Shown: in pieces, positions 20,994-41,175 of the stretch
Layout of the letters: each line of letters opens with the position of its first letter
Numbering within the stretch: position 1 is the first letter of the stretch
Assembly (NCBI GenBank): GCA_046075565.1
Contig: JBJTQJ010000108.1
Coordinates: 1 to 64,000, forward strand
Reading direction: 5' to 3'
DNA from: Verrucomicrobiales bacterium
Lineage (GTDB): Bacteria; Verrucomicrobiota; Verrucomicrobiia; Verrucomicrobiales; SLCJ01
Length of the DNA stretch: 64,000 nucleotides
Notes under the pieces: model-generated
Database searches by the model: none
Told to the model about the DNA's origin: nothing
The model's input: the letters and a program-made list of their open reading frames with translations, nothing else
Program-made: the position numbers and the translations under genes

Positions 20994-23459
20994 ATGCCAA
21001 CCGAACCAACTTTTACCAGCCGTCTCGATCAAACGCCTTCCGGACTCGGGCTTCTCACCCGGCACCACTTGAAATTCACCCTCGCGAGGGACAAACAGAC
21101 CGCCAGCCGGCGCGACTGGTGGGTGGCCACTTCGAAAGCCGTGCAGAGCGTGATTGTCGAGCGGATGATTGCGACCCAGGCCGCCCACCACCGTGCCAAT
21201 GCCAAGCGCATCTATTATTTCTCGCTGGAATTCCTGATGGGCCGCCTCTACTCGAACAGCCTCCACAGTGCCGGAATCTTCGAGGCCATGCAGCAGGCGG
21301 TGCGCGACCTCGGCATGGATCTCGACCTCCTCCGGGATGAAGAATACGACATGGCCCTCGGGAACGGTGGCCTTGGTCGACTGGCCGCCTGCTTTCTCGA
21401 TTCCCTCGCCACGCTGGATCTTCCCGCCATCGGTTACGGCATCCATTACCACTACGGACTCTTCAAGCAGGAGTTCCGCAACGGCTACCAAGTTGAATTG
21501 CCCGATGAATGGATGAAATTCGGCACCCCATGGGAGATCATGCGTCCGGAATACCAGGTCAGCATCCCCATTTACGGCTACGTGGAAAACCTTTTTGACG
21601 ACCGCGGCAATTATTTGCCGAAGTGGAATGGAACGAAGTCCCTCGTAGGTGTGCCTTACGACATCCCGGTGCCGGGCTATGGAACCACCACGGTGAATTT
21701 CCTCCGCCTCTGGGAATCCCGCGCGCCCGAAGAGTTCGACTTCGACGCCTTCAACAGAGGCGGATACGAGGAAGCGGTCTACGAAAAGAACATGTCGGAG
21801 ACGGTTTCCAAAGTCCTCTACCCGAACGACAAAACGGAGAGCGGCAAGGAACTCCGGCTCATCCAACAGTATTTCTTCGTCGCGTGTTCGTTACGCGATA
21901 TCATCCGCCGGTTCAAGAAAACCAACGAAGAATGGGCAGACTTCCCCGAAAAGACGACCATCCAGCTCAACGACACCCATCCGGCTGTTGCCATCGTCGA
22001 ATTGCAGAGGTTGTTGCACGACGACTACCAGCTTCCTTGGGAGGAGGCCTGGGGTATTGTCACGCGCACGTTCGCTTACACCAACCATACCCTCCTGCCC
22101 GAAGCGTTGGAGAAGTGGAGCGTGACGCTGTTTGAGAAAGTTCTCCCCCGCCACCTCCAACTGATTCTCGAAATCAACCGGAGATTCCTCGACGAGGTCG
22201 CCACGCACTGGCCCGGCGACACGCAAAAACTCGGCACCCTCTCGCTGATCGAGGAAGGCGGGGAAAAGATGGTTCGTATGGCCCACCTTTCCGTCGTGGG
22301 AAGTCATTCGGTAAACGGCGTGGCCGCCCTTCATACGGAGTTACTCAAAAAGGATCTCTTCCCGGAATTCAACGAGTTCTACCCCGGCAAATTCAACAAC
22401 AAGACCAACGGCATCACCCCGCGTCGCTGGTTGTTGGCCGCCAACCCGCGTCTTTCAAGACTCATCACCGACCGGATTGGTTCGGGCTGGGAGCGTGACC
22501 TGGACAAATTGCAGGAATTGGAAAATTTTGCCGGGGACACCGGATTCCAAGAAGAATTCATGGCCGTCAAGATGGCGAACAAGATCGACCTCGCCCGGAT
22601 TATCCGCCGCGAGTGCGGGATTTCCGTGAATCCGGCCGCTCTTTTCGACGTGCAGATCAAACGCTTGCATGAATACAAGCGTCAACATCTGAACCTGCTT
22701 CATATCCTCGCCCTCTACCGGAGATTGCTGCAAAACCCGGACCTCGACATCGAACCTCGTGTCTTTGTTTTCGCGGCCAAAGCCGCCCCCGGCTATGACA
22801 TGGCCAAAACCATCATCAAGGCCATCAACGCCGTCGGCCACACCATCAACAACGACCCGCGCGTGCGCGACCAACTCAAGGTCGCCTTCTTGCCGAACTA
22901 CCGTGTTTCCCTCGCCCAGCGCATCGTGCCGGCCGCCGACCTGTCGGAACAAATCTCGACCGCGGGCAAGGAAGCATCCGGCACCGGCAACATGAAACTC
23001 GCGCTGAATGGCGCCCTGACCATCGGCACGCTCGATGGGGCCAACGTCGAGATCCGGGAAGAGGTCGGGGACGACAACATCTTTATCTTCGGCATGACCG
23101 TGGATGAAGTGCAAGACCTCGTTTCTCGCGGCTACAATCCGCGTGCCTTCTACGAGGGCAATGAGGAGCTACGCGCCGTTGTGGACTGGGTCGGCTCGAA
23201 CTACTTCACCCCTGATGAACCTCATGGCGTATTGCAATCGCTGCACAATGATCTCATCAATCACGATCCCTTCCTCGTGCTCGCCGACTACCAGAGCTAC
23301 AGCGATTGCCAGGAGCGCGTGAACCTCGCCTTCCGCGACCGCGTGCGCTGGGCCCGCATGGCCATCCTCAACACCGCCCGCGTCGGCAAATTCTCCAGCG
23401 ACCGCACCATCGCCGAATATGCGCGGGACATCTGGAAAGCCCAACCCGTGAAGGTATGA
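20994..23459 (+). CDS. glgP: Glycogen/alpha-glucan phosphorylase (GT35)
   Basis: [44 protein letters not shown] and EASGTGNMK (PLP lysine). Confidence 0.97.
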
Positions 23460-26538: not shown

Positions 26539-28500
26539 ATGAACGCTCTCCAAGAAAAACTCGATGCCGCTGTCGCCTCCGGTTCACTCCTGCCCGCCAG
26601 CCGCGAAAATATCCTCGCGCTGCTCTCCGCCACCGATAACCCCGTTTATCCCGCCGCGGTTGGAGAACTGGTCGGCGCCGGGCAATGGACCGAGTTGAAT
26701 GATCGGTTCTTCCGGACCCTCGCCTTCGGCACCGGCGGACTGCGCGGACGGACAATCGGTCGGGTGGTGACAACCGCCGAACAAGGCTCGGGCGGCCCGA
26801 ACGGTCGCCCGGAGCATCCATGCGTGGGCACAAACACGATGAACTTCCACAACGTGTCGCGAGCCGTCCAGGGCATGATTTCCACGGTAAAGGCTTTCCT
26901 CGCCGAATCCGGAATCCATCGGCGCCCGCGGCTGGTTTTCGGTCATGACACCCGCCACTTTTCACGCGGTTTCGCCGAATTCTGCGCGAAAGTCTGCACA
27001 GATCTTGGATGTGACGCCTGGCTGTTCGCCGCCGAACGTTCCACCCCACAGCTTTCCTTCGCTATCCGCCACCTTGGTGCCGACGCCGGGGTCGTCTTAA
27101 CCGCCAGCCATAACCCACCTCACGACAACGGTTTCAAAGCTTACTTCAATGATGGAGGCCAGCTTGTCGAGCCTTATGCCACGCGAGTGATTGAAGCGGT
27201 GAACGCCATCCACAATCCCGCCTACACCACGCTGCCGGAAGAAGAACGTGGTGCCCTGACCATCATGGGCTCGGAAATCGACGAGGCTTACATCACACGC
27301 CTGACCGGTCTCGTGCTGGAACCGTCCCGTTTGTCCGGAGGGCCGCGGCCGAAGATTGTTTTCACCACGCTGCATGGGACCGGCGGCCGCATCATCCCCG
27401 GCGTGCTGAATAGGCTCGGATGTGAGGTGGATACCGTGTCCGCACAGGACAGCCCGGATGGAAGATTTCCAACCGTGACCTCGCCGAATCCCGAAAATGC
27501 CGAGGCCCTTCAACTTGCCATCGAACAAGCGGAAGCCACCGGAGCGGATCTGGTCATTGGCACGGACCCGGATTGCGACCGCATGGGCGTCGCTGCACGG
27601 GATGCCGGGGGCAAGATGGTGCTGATCACCGGCAACCAGATCGGTTCTCTTCTCGCCTACCACCGCACACGCACGTTTTTCCAACAGGGAGTTTTGAACG
27701 ACGGGAACCGCGAACGCGCCACGCTGATCAAGACATTCGTCACCACCGATCTCCAATCTGCCATCGCCAATCATTATGGAATCGGATGCGTGAACACATT
27801 AACCGGTTTCAAATACATCGCGGAAAAGCTCCGCAAATACGAGACGGCTATTCCACGACATGTCTACCGCGACTACACCTCGCTCGATGAAAAAGAAAGC
27901 CGCAGTTTGCGGCTCGAACATTCCCGCTTCTTCATCTTCGGCGGTGAAGAAAGCTACGGCTACCTCGGCAGTGATTCGATCCGTGACAAAGATGCGAACG
28001 GCTCCGCGGTCATGTTCGTCGAGATGGCATGTTATGCCATTTCCATCGGACTGACCGTGCCCGGATTGCTCGATCTTGTTTACCGGGAATTCGGATATTT
28101 CCTGGAAAAGAACCACTCGAAAACCTTCGAAGGAGCCGAAGGAGCAGCTCGCATCGCCGCTCTGGCCGCCTCCTACGCGGGAGAGCCTCCAACCGAAGTG
28201 GATGGCAGCAAGGTGACCAACATTCGCGATTTCAACCGCGATACCCTGCACGACGAGGAAGGCGACTCTATTCCGAAGGAAAAAATGCTCTTCGTCCAAT
28301 TGGCAGATGGAAGATCCTTCGCCGTCCGCCCGTCGGGAACCGAGCCGAAAATCAAATACTATCTGTTTGGACGACAATTGCCGCCAACGGGAGGAACTCT
28401 CGACGCCGTCAGCCTCGAAGCAGCGAAGCACAGCGTCGGAAACACCCTCGCCTCGCTCTGGAAGTGGCTGGATGAGGACATCACACGCCGTCTCGCCTGA
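26539..28500 (+). CDS. pgm: Phosphoglucomutase/phosphomannomutase
   Basis: FGTGGLRG, TASHNP (phosphoserine), DPDCDR, EESYG and RPSGTEPKIK. Confidence 0.93.
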   Translation: MNALQEKLDAAVASGSLLPASRENILALLSATDNPVYPAAVGELVGAGQWTELNDRFFRTLAFGTGGLRGRTIGRVVTTAEQGSGGPNGRPEHPCVGTNTMNFHNVSRAVQGMISTVKAFLAESGIHRRPRLVFGHDTRHFSRGFAEFCAKVCTDLGCDAWLFAAERSTPQLSFAIRHLGADAGVVLTASHNPPHDNGFKAYFNDGGQLVEPYATRVIEAVNAIHNPAYTTLPEEERGALTIMGSEIDEAYITRLTGLVLEPSRLSGGPRPKIVFTTLHGTGGRIIPGVLNRLGCEVDTVSAQDSPDGRFPTVTSPNPENAEALQLAIEQAEATGADLVIGTDPDCDRMGVAARDAGGKMVLITGNQIGSLLAYHRTRTFFQQGVLNDGNRERATLIKTFVTTDLQSAIANHYGIGCVNTLTGFKYIAEKLRKYETAIPRHVYRDYTSLDEKESRSLRLEHSRFFIFGGEESYGYLGSDSIRDKDANGSAVMFVEMACYAISIGLTVPGLLDLVYREFGYFLEKNHSKTFEGAEGAARIAALAASYAGEPPTEVDGSKVTNIRDFNRDTLHDEEGDSIPKEKMLFVQLADGRSFAVRPSGTEPKIKYYLFGRQLPPTGGTLDAVSLEAAKHSVGNTLASLWKWLDEDITRRLA

Positions 28501-30749: not shown

Positions 30750-31571
30750 TCATAGAGACTTGAGGGGCGGCTGGGATCCCAGCGAGGAAAAGGAGGCAAC
30801 AAGGGCTCCCGGCTCCACTTTTTCCGCTCCGCGTGCGATGATCATGCGTCTTTGGCAAGCTAGGGCCTCTTGGCCGGGTAGCCCCCACAGCCTGGCGAGC
30901 GCCGACAAGTCAGCGGCTGAGCCGGAGGAAGCTTCACCGAAGCCACTCCATCGGTATTCGGCAGGGTCGCTCACCAGACCGGCGCGGACAGGATTTGCAT
31001 CGATGTAAGCAGCGACAACGCGAGCGATTTCCCCGTATCCCGCGGCAACACCCGGCGTTTGGCTCGTTCCATCCTCCTCATGATCCACGATAAAGCTGCG
31101 ATAACGTTCCTCCCAAAGAGTGCCCGACCTCTCGTTGTTTCGATTGAACCACTGGGTAAATCTTTGTTTAAGGGACTTCATCATTAACCCCAAGTCCCCC
31201 ATACGCCGGCGGTAAGGGGCGAGCAACTCCCGACGACTTGATTCCGCGCCACACATGGCCAGCAGATTCTCCAGATGAATCCGAACGGCCCGTCCATTGA
31301 TCAGACCGACCCGGCGAAGAACTTCCGCGTCGGGGGGGTCGTCCTGGTGTCTTCCGGATTTTACAGGCACCCGGAGCAAAAGATGGAAATGGTTTCCCAT
31401 CAGGCACCAGGCCACGACATCAATCCCGCTGAATTCGGCGTAGGCCAGCAGCAATTTGCGGAAATGCGCCTTTTCGGCTTCGCCAAAAACGAGCCGTCGC
31501 TCCACCACCCGGCTGAGCACATGGTAAAGGCCTACGGATTCTTCAGAGACCAACTTCCTTGCCGTTCGCAT
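30750..31571 (-). mobile_element. Y1 HUH transposase (IS200-like / REP-associated tyrosine transposase)
   Basis: YHVLSR, CLMGNHFHLL (HUH), GTLWEERYRS and YIDANPVRAGLV..P.EYRWS. GGGGACAG motif at 31586-31593 next to the 5' end. Confidence 0.88.
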
Positions 31572-31639
31572 GCCGGACAATAAACGGGGACAGACAATTT
31601 GACAAGATATTTCGATGCTTACAATAGGTTACAGTTCTT

Positions 31640-37379: not shown

Positions 37380-38252
37380 ATGAAGACACAATCCTTTCAA
37401 AATTACCCGAAGCTGGTCGCGGGGCGCTTTGAAATCCTTGGTTTGCTTGGCATAGGCGGCATGTCCGAGGTTTATCGGGCCTGGGATTGCGAGAGAAACG
37501 AAGTCGTTGCTTTCAAAAAGGTGAAGGACGGCTCGGCCCGGCAAAAGGAGGCGATGGTCCGGGAGGCGGATGCTCTCAGACGGCTTTCCCATCCTGCCAT
37601 CTTGAAATGCCACGCCTCGGGAGTGGAAGATGGAGACGAATGGTTGGCCCTCGAGTATGTGCCGGGCTGGGATGCCGGTGCGGTGGTGAAGGCCCATAGC
37701 TTCGACCAAGTCGACTTTCCCCGTGTGGCTGCGCAGGCGCTGCAAGCTTTCGCTAGCGCGCATGAGGGAGGATATGTCCATGGTGACATCAAACCCGGCA
37801 ACCTGATGCTGGAAAAAACCACCGGCCCATGGCGGGCCAAGCTGGTTGATTTCGGGCTTTGTGCGCGGCCTTCCGAACATGACGGCGGGACAAGCGGCCC
37901 GAGCCGCGACGATCAAGGCTCGCTCTATTTCCTCGCCCCGGAGCGTTTTTCCGGCCAACCGGTTTCGGTTGCCGCGGATCTCTACTCCTTGGGCGCGGTC
38001 TTCTATTTCCTGCTCTCGGGGTGCTTCCCCGTGGATGGCGGCAGCGAAATCGAAATCATGGCCGGCCATGTGCTGGGTCGCATCGAGTCCCTCGAGAAAA
38101 TCTCGGATGTGGACCCGTTGATTGCCCAATGGTTGATGAACTTGCTCGCTTGCGAACCGGAAGATCGCCCCGTGTCGGCGCTGGCCGCTCTTCGCGGACT
38201 TGCCTCCGCCCTTGCCCACCGTGGGATTCTCGGCGGTGCGACGGCGAAATGA
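37380..38252 (+). CDS. Hanks-type Ser/Thr protein kinase (kinase domain only)
   Basis: LGIGGMSEVY, VAFK, HGDIKPGN, DFG, APE and DLYSLG. Confidence 0.92.
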   Translation: MKTQSFQNYPKLVAGRFEILGLLGIGGMSEVYRAWDCERNEVVAFKKVKDGSARQKEAMVREADALRRLSHPAILKCHASGVEDGDEWLALEYVPGWDAGAVVKAHSFDQVDFPRVAAQALQAFASAHEGGYVHGDIKPGNLMLEKTTGPWRAKLVDFGLCARPSEHDGGTSGPSRDDQGSLYFLAPERFSGQPVSVAADLYSLGAVFYFLLSGCFPVDGGSEIEIMAGHVLGRIESLEKISDVDPLIAQWLMNLLACEPEDRPVSALAALRGLASALAHRGILGGATAK

Positions 38253-39396: not shown

Positions 39397-39512
39397 GCGC
39401 CACCATAACCATGGGCGGTCACATGGCGAATCCGATTTTCTATGGCAAGCCTTGCCAAACTCCGGGAACGGCCCCAATCTACTGCCAGCCGTTCCAAAAC
39501 GGCGCTCATCTC

Positions 39513-40601
39513 ATGAATCGATTCTTCCCCATCCGCCATGCCGCCGCCGCGCTGTTGATGTTCGGTCAGATGGCACCGGCGCAGGATTCTCTCCTTACGG
39601 AGAAGGAACAGGAAAGCATGCTCAAACGCCTCGATTCGCTTGAAGAAGAGGCCGGCCGCCTCGCCTCGGGCCGTCTGGCTACCGCCGTGACCGCCTTCAA
39701 AGCCGGACTCGCCGGCAATGAAGCCACCATTGATCTTTATTTGCAGTGTATTGAGAAAGTCCGTTACATCGATCAGAACCGCCCGCTCATCGAGTTCCGC
39801 GAGTGGAAACGGACGCAGAAGGACAAATTCAGCGAAATCTCCTTCCGAGAGGCCCTTCGTTATCAACTCCGTTGGCTGCTGCTCGGACTCGAAATGGCGA
39901 GCAAGGAACTCGCACCCGGCGAAATGGGAGAGAAAGCGGCGGAACTCGTCGCTGCGGTCATCCGGGATGCGAAATTGCTCGGTCCCCACACGGCCATGAT
40001 GAAGGACAGCGCCTTCGGCACGGTTTTCGCCAATGCCTACAGGGTCGGCCATCTCGCACCCGAGGGCTGGCCTGCGAGCCCTCTTCCGGTCGGACCAGTC
40101 TATGAGCAACTCATTTTGCCGCGCCTGAGAATGAGCGGCGACATCCAACGCCTCGAAACGGCATGGACCACCCGCATTAATCAGGAAACCGCGCTCATGA
40201 CCACGTCCGCCGAGGCCGACAAGGAAAAAGGCGAGGCCGATCTCGACCGTTTCAACACCGAGGAACGCCCCCGACTCCTATGGAAAATGCTCACCGACAT
40301 CTACCGGGCGGGCGGACAACGCCAATCGGCGGGAAAAATGCTTTCCTTCCTGGAAGCGAACCTCTCCCACCGTTTGGCCGTCGAATGGGCCTCCGAGATG
40401 AAAGGCTTGTTGGAGGTGGTCGGCAGTCCCGATTACCCACCAACCGAAGCCACGACCGGCTCGCCACCGCCGGCGGTGAAAGAGGAAACTCCGGAGCCAC
40501 CGGGTTCCATCACCCCCGTGCCCATGGCCCCGCCCAAGCCCCCTCCCCCAGCGCCTGCACCAAGTTCCGATCCCTTCGATGCGGTTAACCAACCCGGCTG
40601 A
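39513..40601 (+). CDS. Hypothetical secreted alpha-helical protein with Pro-rich tail
   Basis: Signal peptide (..APA-QD), helical body and a PPPPAPAP C-terminus. Confidence 0.75.
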   Translation: MNRFFPIRHAAAALLMFGQMAPAQDSLLTEKEQESMLKRLDSLEEEAGRLASGRLATAVTAFKAGLAGNEATIDLYLQCIEKVRYIDQNRPLIEFREWKRTQKDKFSEISFREALRYQLRWLLLGLEMASKELAPGEMGEKAAELVAAVIRDAKLLGPHTAMMKDSAFGTVFANAYRVGHLAPEGWPASPLPVGPVYEQLILPRLRMSGDIQRLETAWTTRINQETALMTTSAEADKEKGEADLDRFNTEERPRLLWKMLTDIYRAGGQRQSAGKMLSFLEANLSHRLAVEWASEMKGLLEVVGSPDYPPTEATTGSPPPAVKEETPEPPGSITPVPMAPPKPPPPAPAPSSDPFDAVNQPG

Positions 40602-40725: not shown

Positions 40726-41175
40726 ATGATCACCAAAAGCACCGATCCGAAAATCGGCGCCTGCCTCGCCACTTTCACCTGCCTCCCGCCGCACGGGGCC
40801 AAACACGTCTCCATCTGCGGGGACTTCAACCAATGGCAGGCGGGACATGACACCATGACCCGCGAAGCAGATGGAACATTCACCATCACGCTGACCCTCA
40901 AAGAGGGCAGCCGCTTCTCCTTCAAATACCTTGCCGATGTCGGCGGCTGGCTCAACGACGAGAAGGCCGACGATTACCTGCAGAACGAATATGGCGTCTG
41001 GAACTCCATCGTCGCCACCCCCGCGGCCCCGAAGAAACCCGCCGCGAAAAAGGCACCGGCCAAGAAGGCGGTCGTGAAATCCGAACCGGAAAAACCAGCT
41101 CCTGTCGCGAAAAAGGCTCCCGCCAAAAAAGCCCCGGCCAAGAAAAAGGCCGCCGCGAAGAAGGCGAAGCCCTGA
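40726..41175 (+). CDS. CBM48 / isoamylase early-set domain protein with histone-H1-like PAKK tail
   Basis: AKHVSICGDFNQW, DGTFTITLTL, FKYLAD..WLND and NEYG..NSIV, then about 50 Lys/Ala/Pro-rich residues. Confidence 0.88.
   Translation: MITKSTDPKIGACLATFTCLPPHGAKHVSICGDFNQWQAGHDTMTREADGTFTITLTLKEGSRFSFKYLADVGGWLNDEKADDYLQNEYGVWNSIVATPAAPKKPAAKKAPAKKAVVKSEPEKPAPVAKKAPAKKAPAKKKAAAKKAKP

Follow-up and report, generated by a model that had tools for sequence, protein, structure and literature searches.

A CBM48 protein with a lysine-rich tail as a candidate glycogen-to-polyanion tether in Verrucomicrobiales

Could a single small protein attach the glycogen of a bacterial cell to its nucleoid? The question is raised by a gene in a Verrucomicrobiales genome (3.9 Mb, 129 contigs) that lies at 40726..41175 (+ strand, stop codon included) of a 64,000-nucleotide stretch of DNA, the whole of which is referred to here as the window. 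It encodes a predicted cytoplasmic protein of 149 aa, composed of a CBM48 module and a basic tail, for which the original prediction was a role in tethering glycogen granules to the nucleoid. The gene was assigned from the translation of its open reading frame (ORF), which was identical to that quoted earlier, and from 8 close relatives. Its start codon is the earliest that the upstream in-frame stop allows, with no alternative start upstream, and the N terminus of the protein (MITKS) agrees with those of its homologues. A signal peptide had been predicted to be absent, and inspection of the alignment and of the structural model, rather than a dedicated predictor, led to the same conclusion: there is no room for such a peptide, since residues 2-7 and 12-19 are sandwich strands in the model and the N terminus is aligned with those of the homologues. 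The composition of the gene gave no signal of foreign origin. A scan for regulatory sites detected no promoter-like site near the gene and two terminator-like sites, both on the opposite strand and without excess over shuffled sequences. Four DNA sequencing runs, all from one study, contain the stretch, and no RNA runs are listed among the matches.

The presence of glgP and pgm in the window had been cited in favor of a link to glycogen. Both genes are present, glgP at 20994-23459 (+ strand) and pgm at 26539-28500 (+ strand), but as evidence of linkage they fail, given their distances of 17 kb and 12 kb, respectively, from the CBM48-tail gene; at these distances, and with many unrelated genes in between, they are not in an operon with it. 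The gene is flanked by an ORF of 396 aa without an assigned family and by a convergent aldose 1-epimerase gene, and none of its immediate neighbors in the window is a glycogen gene.

The first 97 residues (40726..41016, + strand) were assigned to the CBM48/AMPK-beta-type alpha-glucan-binding beta-sandwiches on the basis of Pfam, AF2, Foldseek and residue mapping. Both Pfam families scored above their cut-offs over residues 23-96, as expected from the original prediction of a CBM48/AMPK1_CBM module: AMPK1_CBM (PF16561) with 30.0 bits against a cut-off of 26.8, and CBM_48 (PF02922) with 26.6 bits against 22.4. The AMPK1_CBM score in the whole-genome scan was 30.8 bits. No other Pfam domain exceeded its cut-off in the 149-aa protein, and the reported lack of a catalytic domain was confirmed, as the NCBIfam matches to GlgB models are confined to the N-terminal CBM48 portion and score hundreds of bits below the respective cut-offs. 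The domain has a net charge of -4. When a profile of the family (34 members) was compared with the Protein Data Bank (PDB), all 39 matches at E <= 0.001 were alpha-glucan-binding modules; the best were a pullulanase CBM (6.6e-13) and AMPK beta1 (1z0n, 9e-10), and LSF1, branching enzymes and a glucoamylase starch-binding domain were among the others.

The structural analysis gave the same picture. The AF2 model of the 149-aa protein had a mean pLDDT of 87 and a pTM of 0.67, and residues 1-100 formed a seven-strand sandwich with pLDDT values of 92-98. Foldseek retrieved 107 PDB matches at E <= 0.001, headed by the folds of AMPK beta CBMs (1z0m_B: E 6.8e-6, TMt 0.86, rmsd 1.9 A over 87 columns), and the structural neighbors in the ESM Atlas were all CBM48 clusters, spanning residues 1 to about 100. 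In the alignment with 1z0n, W37, K67 and W75 (pLDDT 92-98) occupy the positions of W100, K126 and W133 of AMPK beta1, with the spacing of 26 and 33 residues kept. Both tryptophans are invariant across the 34-sequence alignment, and position 67, by reading of the alignment, holds either K or R. According to a study on AMPK beta1, glycogen binding is lost with the substitutions W100G and K126Q and weakened with W133L (PMC6274970). Taken together, sequence and model indicate that residues 1-97 are a bona fide CBM48/AMPK1_CBM fold with its sugar-binding residues kept, from which we infer that they grip the surface of the cell's glycogen. The genome encodes the corresponding enzymes, all above their cut-offs, namely, GlgB (989 bits), GlgX (914 bits), a type I pullulanase (536 bits) and glycogen synthase (524 bits); the glycogen phosphorylase GlgP of the window is also above cut-off. 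In the genome scan, the 149-aa protein was the sole noncatalytic CBM48/AMPK1_CBM module, and no ParA-CBM48 fusion was present.

Noncatalytic alpha-glucan-binding modules serve as adaptors elsewhere. Stbd1 is a eukaryotic protein that tethers glycogen to membranes for glycophagy and has, besides its CBM20 module, a membrane anchor. This mammalian protein is described as a noncatalytic adaptor by which glycogen is attached to a different structure of the cell (PMC11546884); its likeness to the window protein is that of a noncatalytic glycogen anchor, a function that is proposed for the latter. The plant PTST proteins, noncatalytic scaffolds whose CBM48 serves to direct enzymes to starch (PMC4339375), resemble the window protein in that a noncatalytic CBM48 brings another partner to an alpha-glucan granule. 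However, PTST coiled coils bind a protein partner, whereas the window protein is free of helices and carries a predicted polyanion-binding tail. A PTST-like coiled-coil scaffold was rejected because no helix of at least 4 residues is present in the AF2 model.

The resemblance to AMPK raises a further candidate role, in which the module brings a kinase or another enzyme to glycogen, with no role for the tail beyond an incidental one. The top structural matches are indeed AMPK beta subunits, with which the window protein shares the fold (26-28% identity to the CBM in 1z0m/1z0n), the Pfam family and the W/K/W binding residues, and a Ser/Thr kinase gene (37380-38252) lies 2.5 kb upstream of the CBM48-tail gene. 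Nevertheless, two other genes lie between them, the kinase is not conserved in the loci of the family relatives, and the C-terminal domain by which AMPK beta binds its alpha and gamma subunits is absent according to Pfam; the window protein is bacterial and stands alone, with a basic tail. An AMPK-beta-like kinase scaffold, for which no further domain was found, was rejected as a candidate, and we consider this role highly improbable.

The second half of the argument concerns residues 98-149 (41017..41172, + strand), a K/A/P-rich, H1-like tail that is predicted to be unstructured, as assessed from composition, the AF2 model and conservation in orthologues. Its 52 residues include 18 K, 17 A and 10 P (45 of 52 are K, A or P) and have a net charge of +16; exact PAKKA motifs occur at residues 111 and 132, and there is a short acidic break, SEPEKP. 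This sequence, including the two exact PAKKA motifs, is the one quoted in the original prediction. The underlying DNA contains an imperfect 15-nt tandem repeat that corresponds to a PAKKA-type unit of 5 residues (41106..41145, + strand); with 2.7 copies of period 15 and 80% matches in Tandem Repeats Finder, the repeat is weak. In the AF2 model, the tail has pLDDT values of 62-81 and no secondary structure. Its description as histone-H1-like holds for the K/A/P composition, the disorder and the basicity, but not for family membership: the scores remained below threshold for Hc2 (PF07382, 18.1 bits against a cut-off of 40) and for the H1-like models NF038053 (16.1 bits against 80) and NF038052 (11.6 bits against 135). 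Given these scores, the protein is not filed in the Hc2 or H1-like families, and the likeness is one of composition only.

Tails of this kind are infrequent in the genome. When the 3.9 Mb were filtered for K/A/P composition, only 17 stop-to-stop frames of at least 60 aa passed. Similar tails were found on a sigma-70 factor, a DksA-type zinc-finger protein, Rho, ribosomal protein L22 and a free H1-like protein, as well as on a 202-aa protein without an assigned function and on pyruvate phosphate dikinase (PPDK). Most of these tail-bearing proteins act on DNA or RNA; the tail on PPDK means that such tails are not confined to nucleic acid proteins.

Is the tail under selection, or is it a chance low-complexity extension of a gene that may itself be miscalled and functionless? 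The first homology search returned 46 relatives, nearly all of them tailed. It was set aside as evidence of conservation, because candidates had been chosen by shared 5-residue words and the tail supplies such words, so that the search was biased toward tails. The question was asked again with core-only queries and with a motif scan. The core-only search retrieved 8 metagenomic relatives at E <= 1e-8 with 52-87% identity in the core, and all 8 have the tail. In the seven closest, the identities of tail and domain, respectively, were 87 and 87%, 85 and 85%, 82 and 81%, 82 and 81%, 81 and 77%, 77 and 69%, and 68 and 62%. A copy of the gene with a basic tail was present in each of the four genomes of the window's taxonomic family; the cores of the three same-family relatives are about 40-45% identical to that of the window protein, and the basic tail is C-terminal in all of them. 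In a FastTree phylogeny of 208 cores (about 95 columns), the window protein fell into a clade of 21 sequences with a support of 64, and all 21 are tailed. Over the whole tree, the presence or absence of a tail required 25 changes, as compared with a mean of 68.8 and a minimum of 57 in 100 shuffles of the labels, in a sample that is partly tail-biased and on a tree whose deep branches are weak. The number of independent tail gains is uncertain for these same reasons.

Absence of the tail from close orthologues had been named as an observation that would speak against the tether. The tail is instead present in 8 of 8 relatives and in the entire clade, and its identity is about that of the domain. 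The tail is more than chance, considering that few genomic frames pass the filter, that the orthologues keep it and that the combination recurs across lineages. Repeat slippage can yield low-complexity tails, and a weak 15-nt repeat is present, which is what a chance extension would call for; the conservation of the gene in 8 relatives with 52-87% core identity, all of them tailed, the conservation of the tail to the same degree as the fold and the recurrence of the architecture in several phyla make that explanation extremely improbable.

The occurrence of the module beyond these relatives was also analyzed. An exhaustive HMMER search (E <= 0.001) identified 2,513 proteins, and long multi-CBM48 proteins account for many of them. 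The motif scan of species-representative genomes, which is blind to tails and covers the WENDWxAD-bearing branch, apart from the window protein's own clade, detected at least 588 loci in Actinomycetota, Chloroflexota, Desulfobacterota, Bacteroidota, Myxococcota, Nitrospirota, Ignavibacteria, Spirochaetota and others. Among the best 80 of these, 59 encode a bare module of 95-115 aa, 12 (mostly in Actinomycetota) have a basic C-terminal tail, 6 have another extension, 2 (both in Acidimicrobiaceae) are CBM48-CYTH-CHAD proteins with CHAD scores of 188 and 186 bits, and 1 is a CBM48-STAS protein. Across the family, the tails range from 19 to 187 aa and are highly variable in sequence. Since 59 of the best 80 loci encode the bare module, the core function of the family needs no tail. 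A search for longer proteins with the core in a fusion yielded 17 candidates, of which none scored, and constitutes weak evidence.

Within the phylum of the window, small relatives were detected in 82 of the 301 sampled genomes and in none of the 23 genomes from the neighboring family within the window's order. Of the 27 best small ORFs in this sample, 14 have an N-terminal lysine tail and 10 are tail-less. The N-tailed ORFs, one of which has a doubtful start, form a distinct AMPK1_CBM subfamily (53-65 bits). As N- and C-terminal tails are found at opposite ends of two different subfamilies, they represent separate events. In Saprospiria (Lewinella, Flavilitoribacter and Neolewinella persica), CBM48-tail forms were found as well, some of them with HHH_5/DUF4332 after the tail; the N. 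persica protein WP_020569044.1 has this tail plus helix-hairpin-helix form. Judged by these architectures, the bare module of about 98 aa is the common form and the anchoring parts are lineage-specific additions, and CBM48-type modules have been joined repeatedly, across lineages, to polyanion binders in the form of tails, helix-hairpin-helix domains and CYTH-CHAD. By this comparison, we read the window protein as the minimal version of a recurring design in which a glucan binder is paired with a polyanion binder.

The genomic neighborhoods of the relatives connect some family members with glycogen, and genes adjoining glgP/glgA, glgX or the glgA-glgB pair were found in three lineages other than that of the window. 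In two Actinomycetes with tailed forms, the gene is convergent with glgP, next to which lies glgA (L037 and L040), and in two tailed Acidimicrobiaceae it is divergent from glgX (L045 and L098). At L092, a bare module has glgA on one side and glgB on the other, all on one strand; a glucokinase gene comes directly after the CBM48 gene at three loci (L070, L073 and L106), and a GH13-family gene is a neighbor at another (L107). In total, alpha-glucan or glucokinase neighbors were present at 9 of the best 80 loci, including 4 of the 12 tailed ones, a count to which no statistic was applied, since kin loci are not independent. Ten N-tail loci had no glycogen gene within about 8 kb, and no neighbor was common to different families around them. 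The window shares no synteny with the three family relatives besides the CBM48-tail gene itself. In a sister genus from the window's family, dnaG-rpoD follows the gene directly on the same strand, 49 bp away at one locus (L126); the arrangement was found in this one lineage only. Co-occurrence with GlgB across the phylum is uninformative, because 295 of the 301 genomes have a GlgB match.

These architectures and neighborhoods bear on whether the tail anchors glycogen at all. The bare CBM48 could do the job by itself as a phasin-like granule coat or regulator that acts on granule size or enzyme access, and the tail would then only add charge, either as a cationic brush that keeps particles separate or soluble or as a driver of condensation. 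A coat of this type would fit the bare module standing alone at most of the best 80 loci, its position in a glgA-glgB cluster and beside glucokinase at three loci, and the wide variation of the tails in length and sequence. We nevertheless consider the coat fairly unlikely, and the same holds for either role of the tail as mere charge. A tail of +16 in a cytoplasm rich in DNA, RNA and polyphosphate would bind polyanions regardless of its purpose, the orthologues keep it position by position, and other lineages have replaced or extended it with folded DNA- or polyphosphate-binding domains, which argues for anchoring over charge alone.

The reading that we favor is that the protein tethers glycogen to a polyanion, with the nucleoid as the most likely partner, and to this we assign, from sequence, model and analogy, a probability of roughly 0.45. 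The protein would be a small cytoplasmic adaptor with two ends, a CBM48 sandwich and a polycationic tail. To judge by its fold, family and binding residues, the CBM48 end would sit on the surface of the cell's glycogen, and the tail would bind a polyanion irrespective of sequence, with nucleoid DNA as the most likely target, so that a single molecule might bridge glycogen particles and the chromosome. The outcome would be that granules are dispersed along the nucleoid and divided between daughter cells, as is the case for the PHB granules of PhaM, PhaF and PhaH and the polyphosphate granules of AlgP. The bare module of about 98 aa may represent the ancestral glycogen-binding unit, to which different lineages would have added anchors, namely, a tail at the C terminus or at the N terminus, a tail together with a helix-hairpin-helix, or CYTH-CHAD.

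The closest precedents are PhaM and PhaF, whose histone-like tails tether PHB granules to the nucleoid; in PhaM of Cupriavidus necator, it is the lysines of PAKKA motifs that attach the granules (PMC9049629 and PMC13052382). Like these proteins, including PhaF of Pseudomonas putida, the window protein combines a predicted storage-granule end and a K/A/P-rich, H1-like C-terminal tail in one polypeptide. It differs in that a CBM48 sandwich for a hydrophilic glucan takes the place of a phasin-type helical end for a hydrophobic polyester, and it is smaller (149 aa) and lacks an oligomerization motif. Pfam and NCBIfam gave no match of the 149-aa protein to a phasin or a PhaM/PhaF family at E <= 1. 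PhaH of Caulobacter crescentus tethers PHB granules through a helix-hairpin-helix that binds DNA nonspecifically (PMC13052382). The HHH_5/DUF4332 that follows the tail in members from Saprospiria is reminiscent of it, whereas the window protein has no helix-hairpin-helix and its cargo-binding end is unlike that of PhaH. In AlgP of Pseudomonas aeruginosa, a KPAA tail is needed for the even spacing of polyphosphate granules (PMC9239181). The K/P/A tails of the two proteins are similar in their H1-like composition, but that of AlgP is about three times longer (a repeat region of 154 aa) and belongs to a protein with a helical N-terminal domain and polyphosphate as its cargo. Compared by sequence, the window protein would be at most an analogue, and not a homologue, of PhaM, PhaF and AlgP.

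Which polyanion the tail would bind was weighed from its composition, the other tail-bearing proteins of the genome and analogy. By analogy, DNA is the most likely target, with polyphosphate and RNA as alternatives; it is not the sole candidate, given the precedents of AlgP for polyphosphate and PhaF for RNA, a PPK1 gene in the genome and the two CHAD fusions. A glycogen-to-polyphosphate link would place the tail on polyphosphate granules and connect glycogen with the nucleoid only indirectly, through the location of those granules there. Consistent with such a link, AlgP, whose tail is closely alike in composition, was found on polyphosphate granules and spaces them (PMC9239181), the genome encodes PPK1, and the module fused to CBM48-CYTH in two family members, CHAD, binds polyphosphate specifically (PMC6537752). 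These CHAD fusions, however, are rare (2 of the best 80 loci) and come from another phylum; the helix-hairpin-helix, which also recurs as a partner, binds DNA; the tails in this genome are mostly on DNA/RNA machinery; and the AlgP tail itself is held to bind DNA, with its N-terminal domain free for other contacts (PMC9239181). We regard the polyphosphate link as unlikely; it and the granule coat are the main competitors of the nucleoid tether.

Association with RNA or ribosomes would connect glycogen with the translation or transcript machinery, for instance, by the sequestration of ribosomes or mRNA in starvation. Similar tails occur on L22 and Rho in this genome, and the disordered region of PhaF was reported to bind RNA (PMC12818456). 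Set against this, no genomic link to translation genes was found, the one conserved neighborhood, that of the sister genus, is dnaG-rpoD, and the helix-hairpin-helix forms point to DNA, so that this alternative appears very unlikely.

Were the nucleoid tether correct, what would it add? No other carbon store is as widespread among bacteria as glycogen. Single-protein nucleoid tethers are already known for PHB and polyphosphate granules, and no counterpart for glycogen was found. The original prediction had presented the system as undescribed, and our literature search, which covered few subscription journals and no supplements, was in agreement with it in finding no paper on a glycogen-nucleoid tether; in a 2025 review of bacterial organelle positioning, glycogen has 0 occurrences. 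In model organisms, the family itself is missing or uncommon (an AMPK1_CBM match was present in 2 of 14 control genomes), which would explain why it has gone unnoticed so far.

Beyond the single protein, the data suggest, as a possibility that we advance tentatively, an undescribed modular family of bacterial glycogen adaptors in which a CBM48 core of about 98 aa is combined with interchangeable anchors (tail, helix-hairpin-helix or CHAD), glycogen being organized on the nucleoid and the storage of carbon and phosphate being coupled spatially to the chromosome. The domain swaps among its members are natural experiments. If the 149-aa protein is a dedicated adaptor, the spacing of glycogen particles, the prevention of their clumping and their inheritance become testable with this protein and three point mutants. 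And if the modular-family reading is true, glycogen would be, like PHB and polyphosphate, physically organized on the nucleoid.

Small proteins built around a CBM48 module, which is predicted to bind glycogen, were distributed unevenly over the families of the phylum. In the sample of 301 genomes, they were abundant in families f20 (29/48), f26 (15/15), and f21 (5/5), in which the GlgB model gave only weak, sub-cut-off matches (E ~1e-55 to 1e-70), whereas families with canonical GlgB (E ~1e-260) were mostly devoid of a small CBM48 protein (1/21 in f6 and 1/26 in f7). The family to which the window belongs possesses both the small protein and canonical GlgB.

In a sister genus, the tailed CBM48 gene (L125:9025-9477 and L126:9462-9959) is followed directly, on the same strand, by dnaG-rpoD, a place usually occupied by rpsU in the macromolecular-synthesis operon. 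In the window, a 396-aa ORF with a proline-rich C-terminus (39411-40601, plus strand) lies upstream of the gene; Pfam and NCBIfam assigned it to no family, and this adjacency is not kept in family relatives. Elsewhere in the window, a 276-aa ORF (30750-31580, minus strand) matches the IS200-like Y1 transposase family over residues 19-74 only and may be a transposase remnant or a fusion.

Other combinations of the module were found in further genomes. In other families of the phylum, an AKKA-type lysine tail at the N-terminus precedes an AMPK1_CBM module (53-65 bits), which is the reverse of the order in the window's protein; these proteins form a separate subfamily (loci L002, L003, L005-L009, L012, L015, L016, L020, L022, and L029), and no glycogen genes were detected within ~8 kb at the 10 loci examined. 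A 228-aa protein (L056:5968-6651) fuses CBM48 to a STAS domain of the anti-sigma-antagonist type. Two Acidimicrobiaceae MAG contigs encode in-frame CBM48-CYTH-CHAD fusions of 626 aa (L054:6001-7878; CHAD, 188 bits) and 651 aa (L063:6001-7953; CHAD, 186 bits), which, judged by their domains, unite a predicted glycogen binder and a predicted polyphosphate-granule binder in one chain.

Five further proteins of the genome that contains the window (L114, L115, L116, L119, and L120) carry a long tail or insert of K/A/P composition. Such stretches occur in a DksA-type zinc-finger protein (~236 aa of AKP repeats, N-terminal), a sigma-70 factor (~120 aa, C-terminal), ribosomal protein L22 (a long tail or insert), Rho (N-terminal), and a free, K/A/P-rich H1-like protein that matched no family. 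Pyruvate phosphate dikinase (L117, G000:C104:29942-32926, minus strand) of this genome bears a C-terminal lysine-rich tail of the AKKAAKKAKKK type, so the same type of appendage is also found on a central metabolic enzyme.
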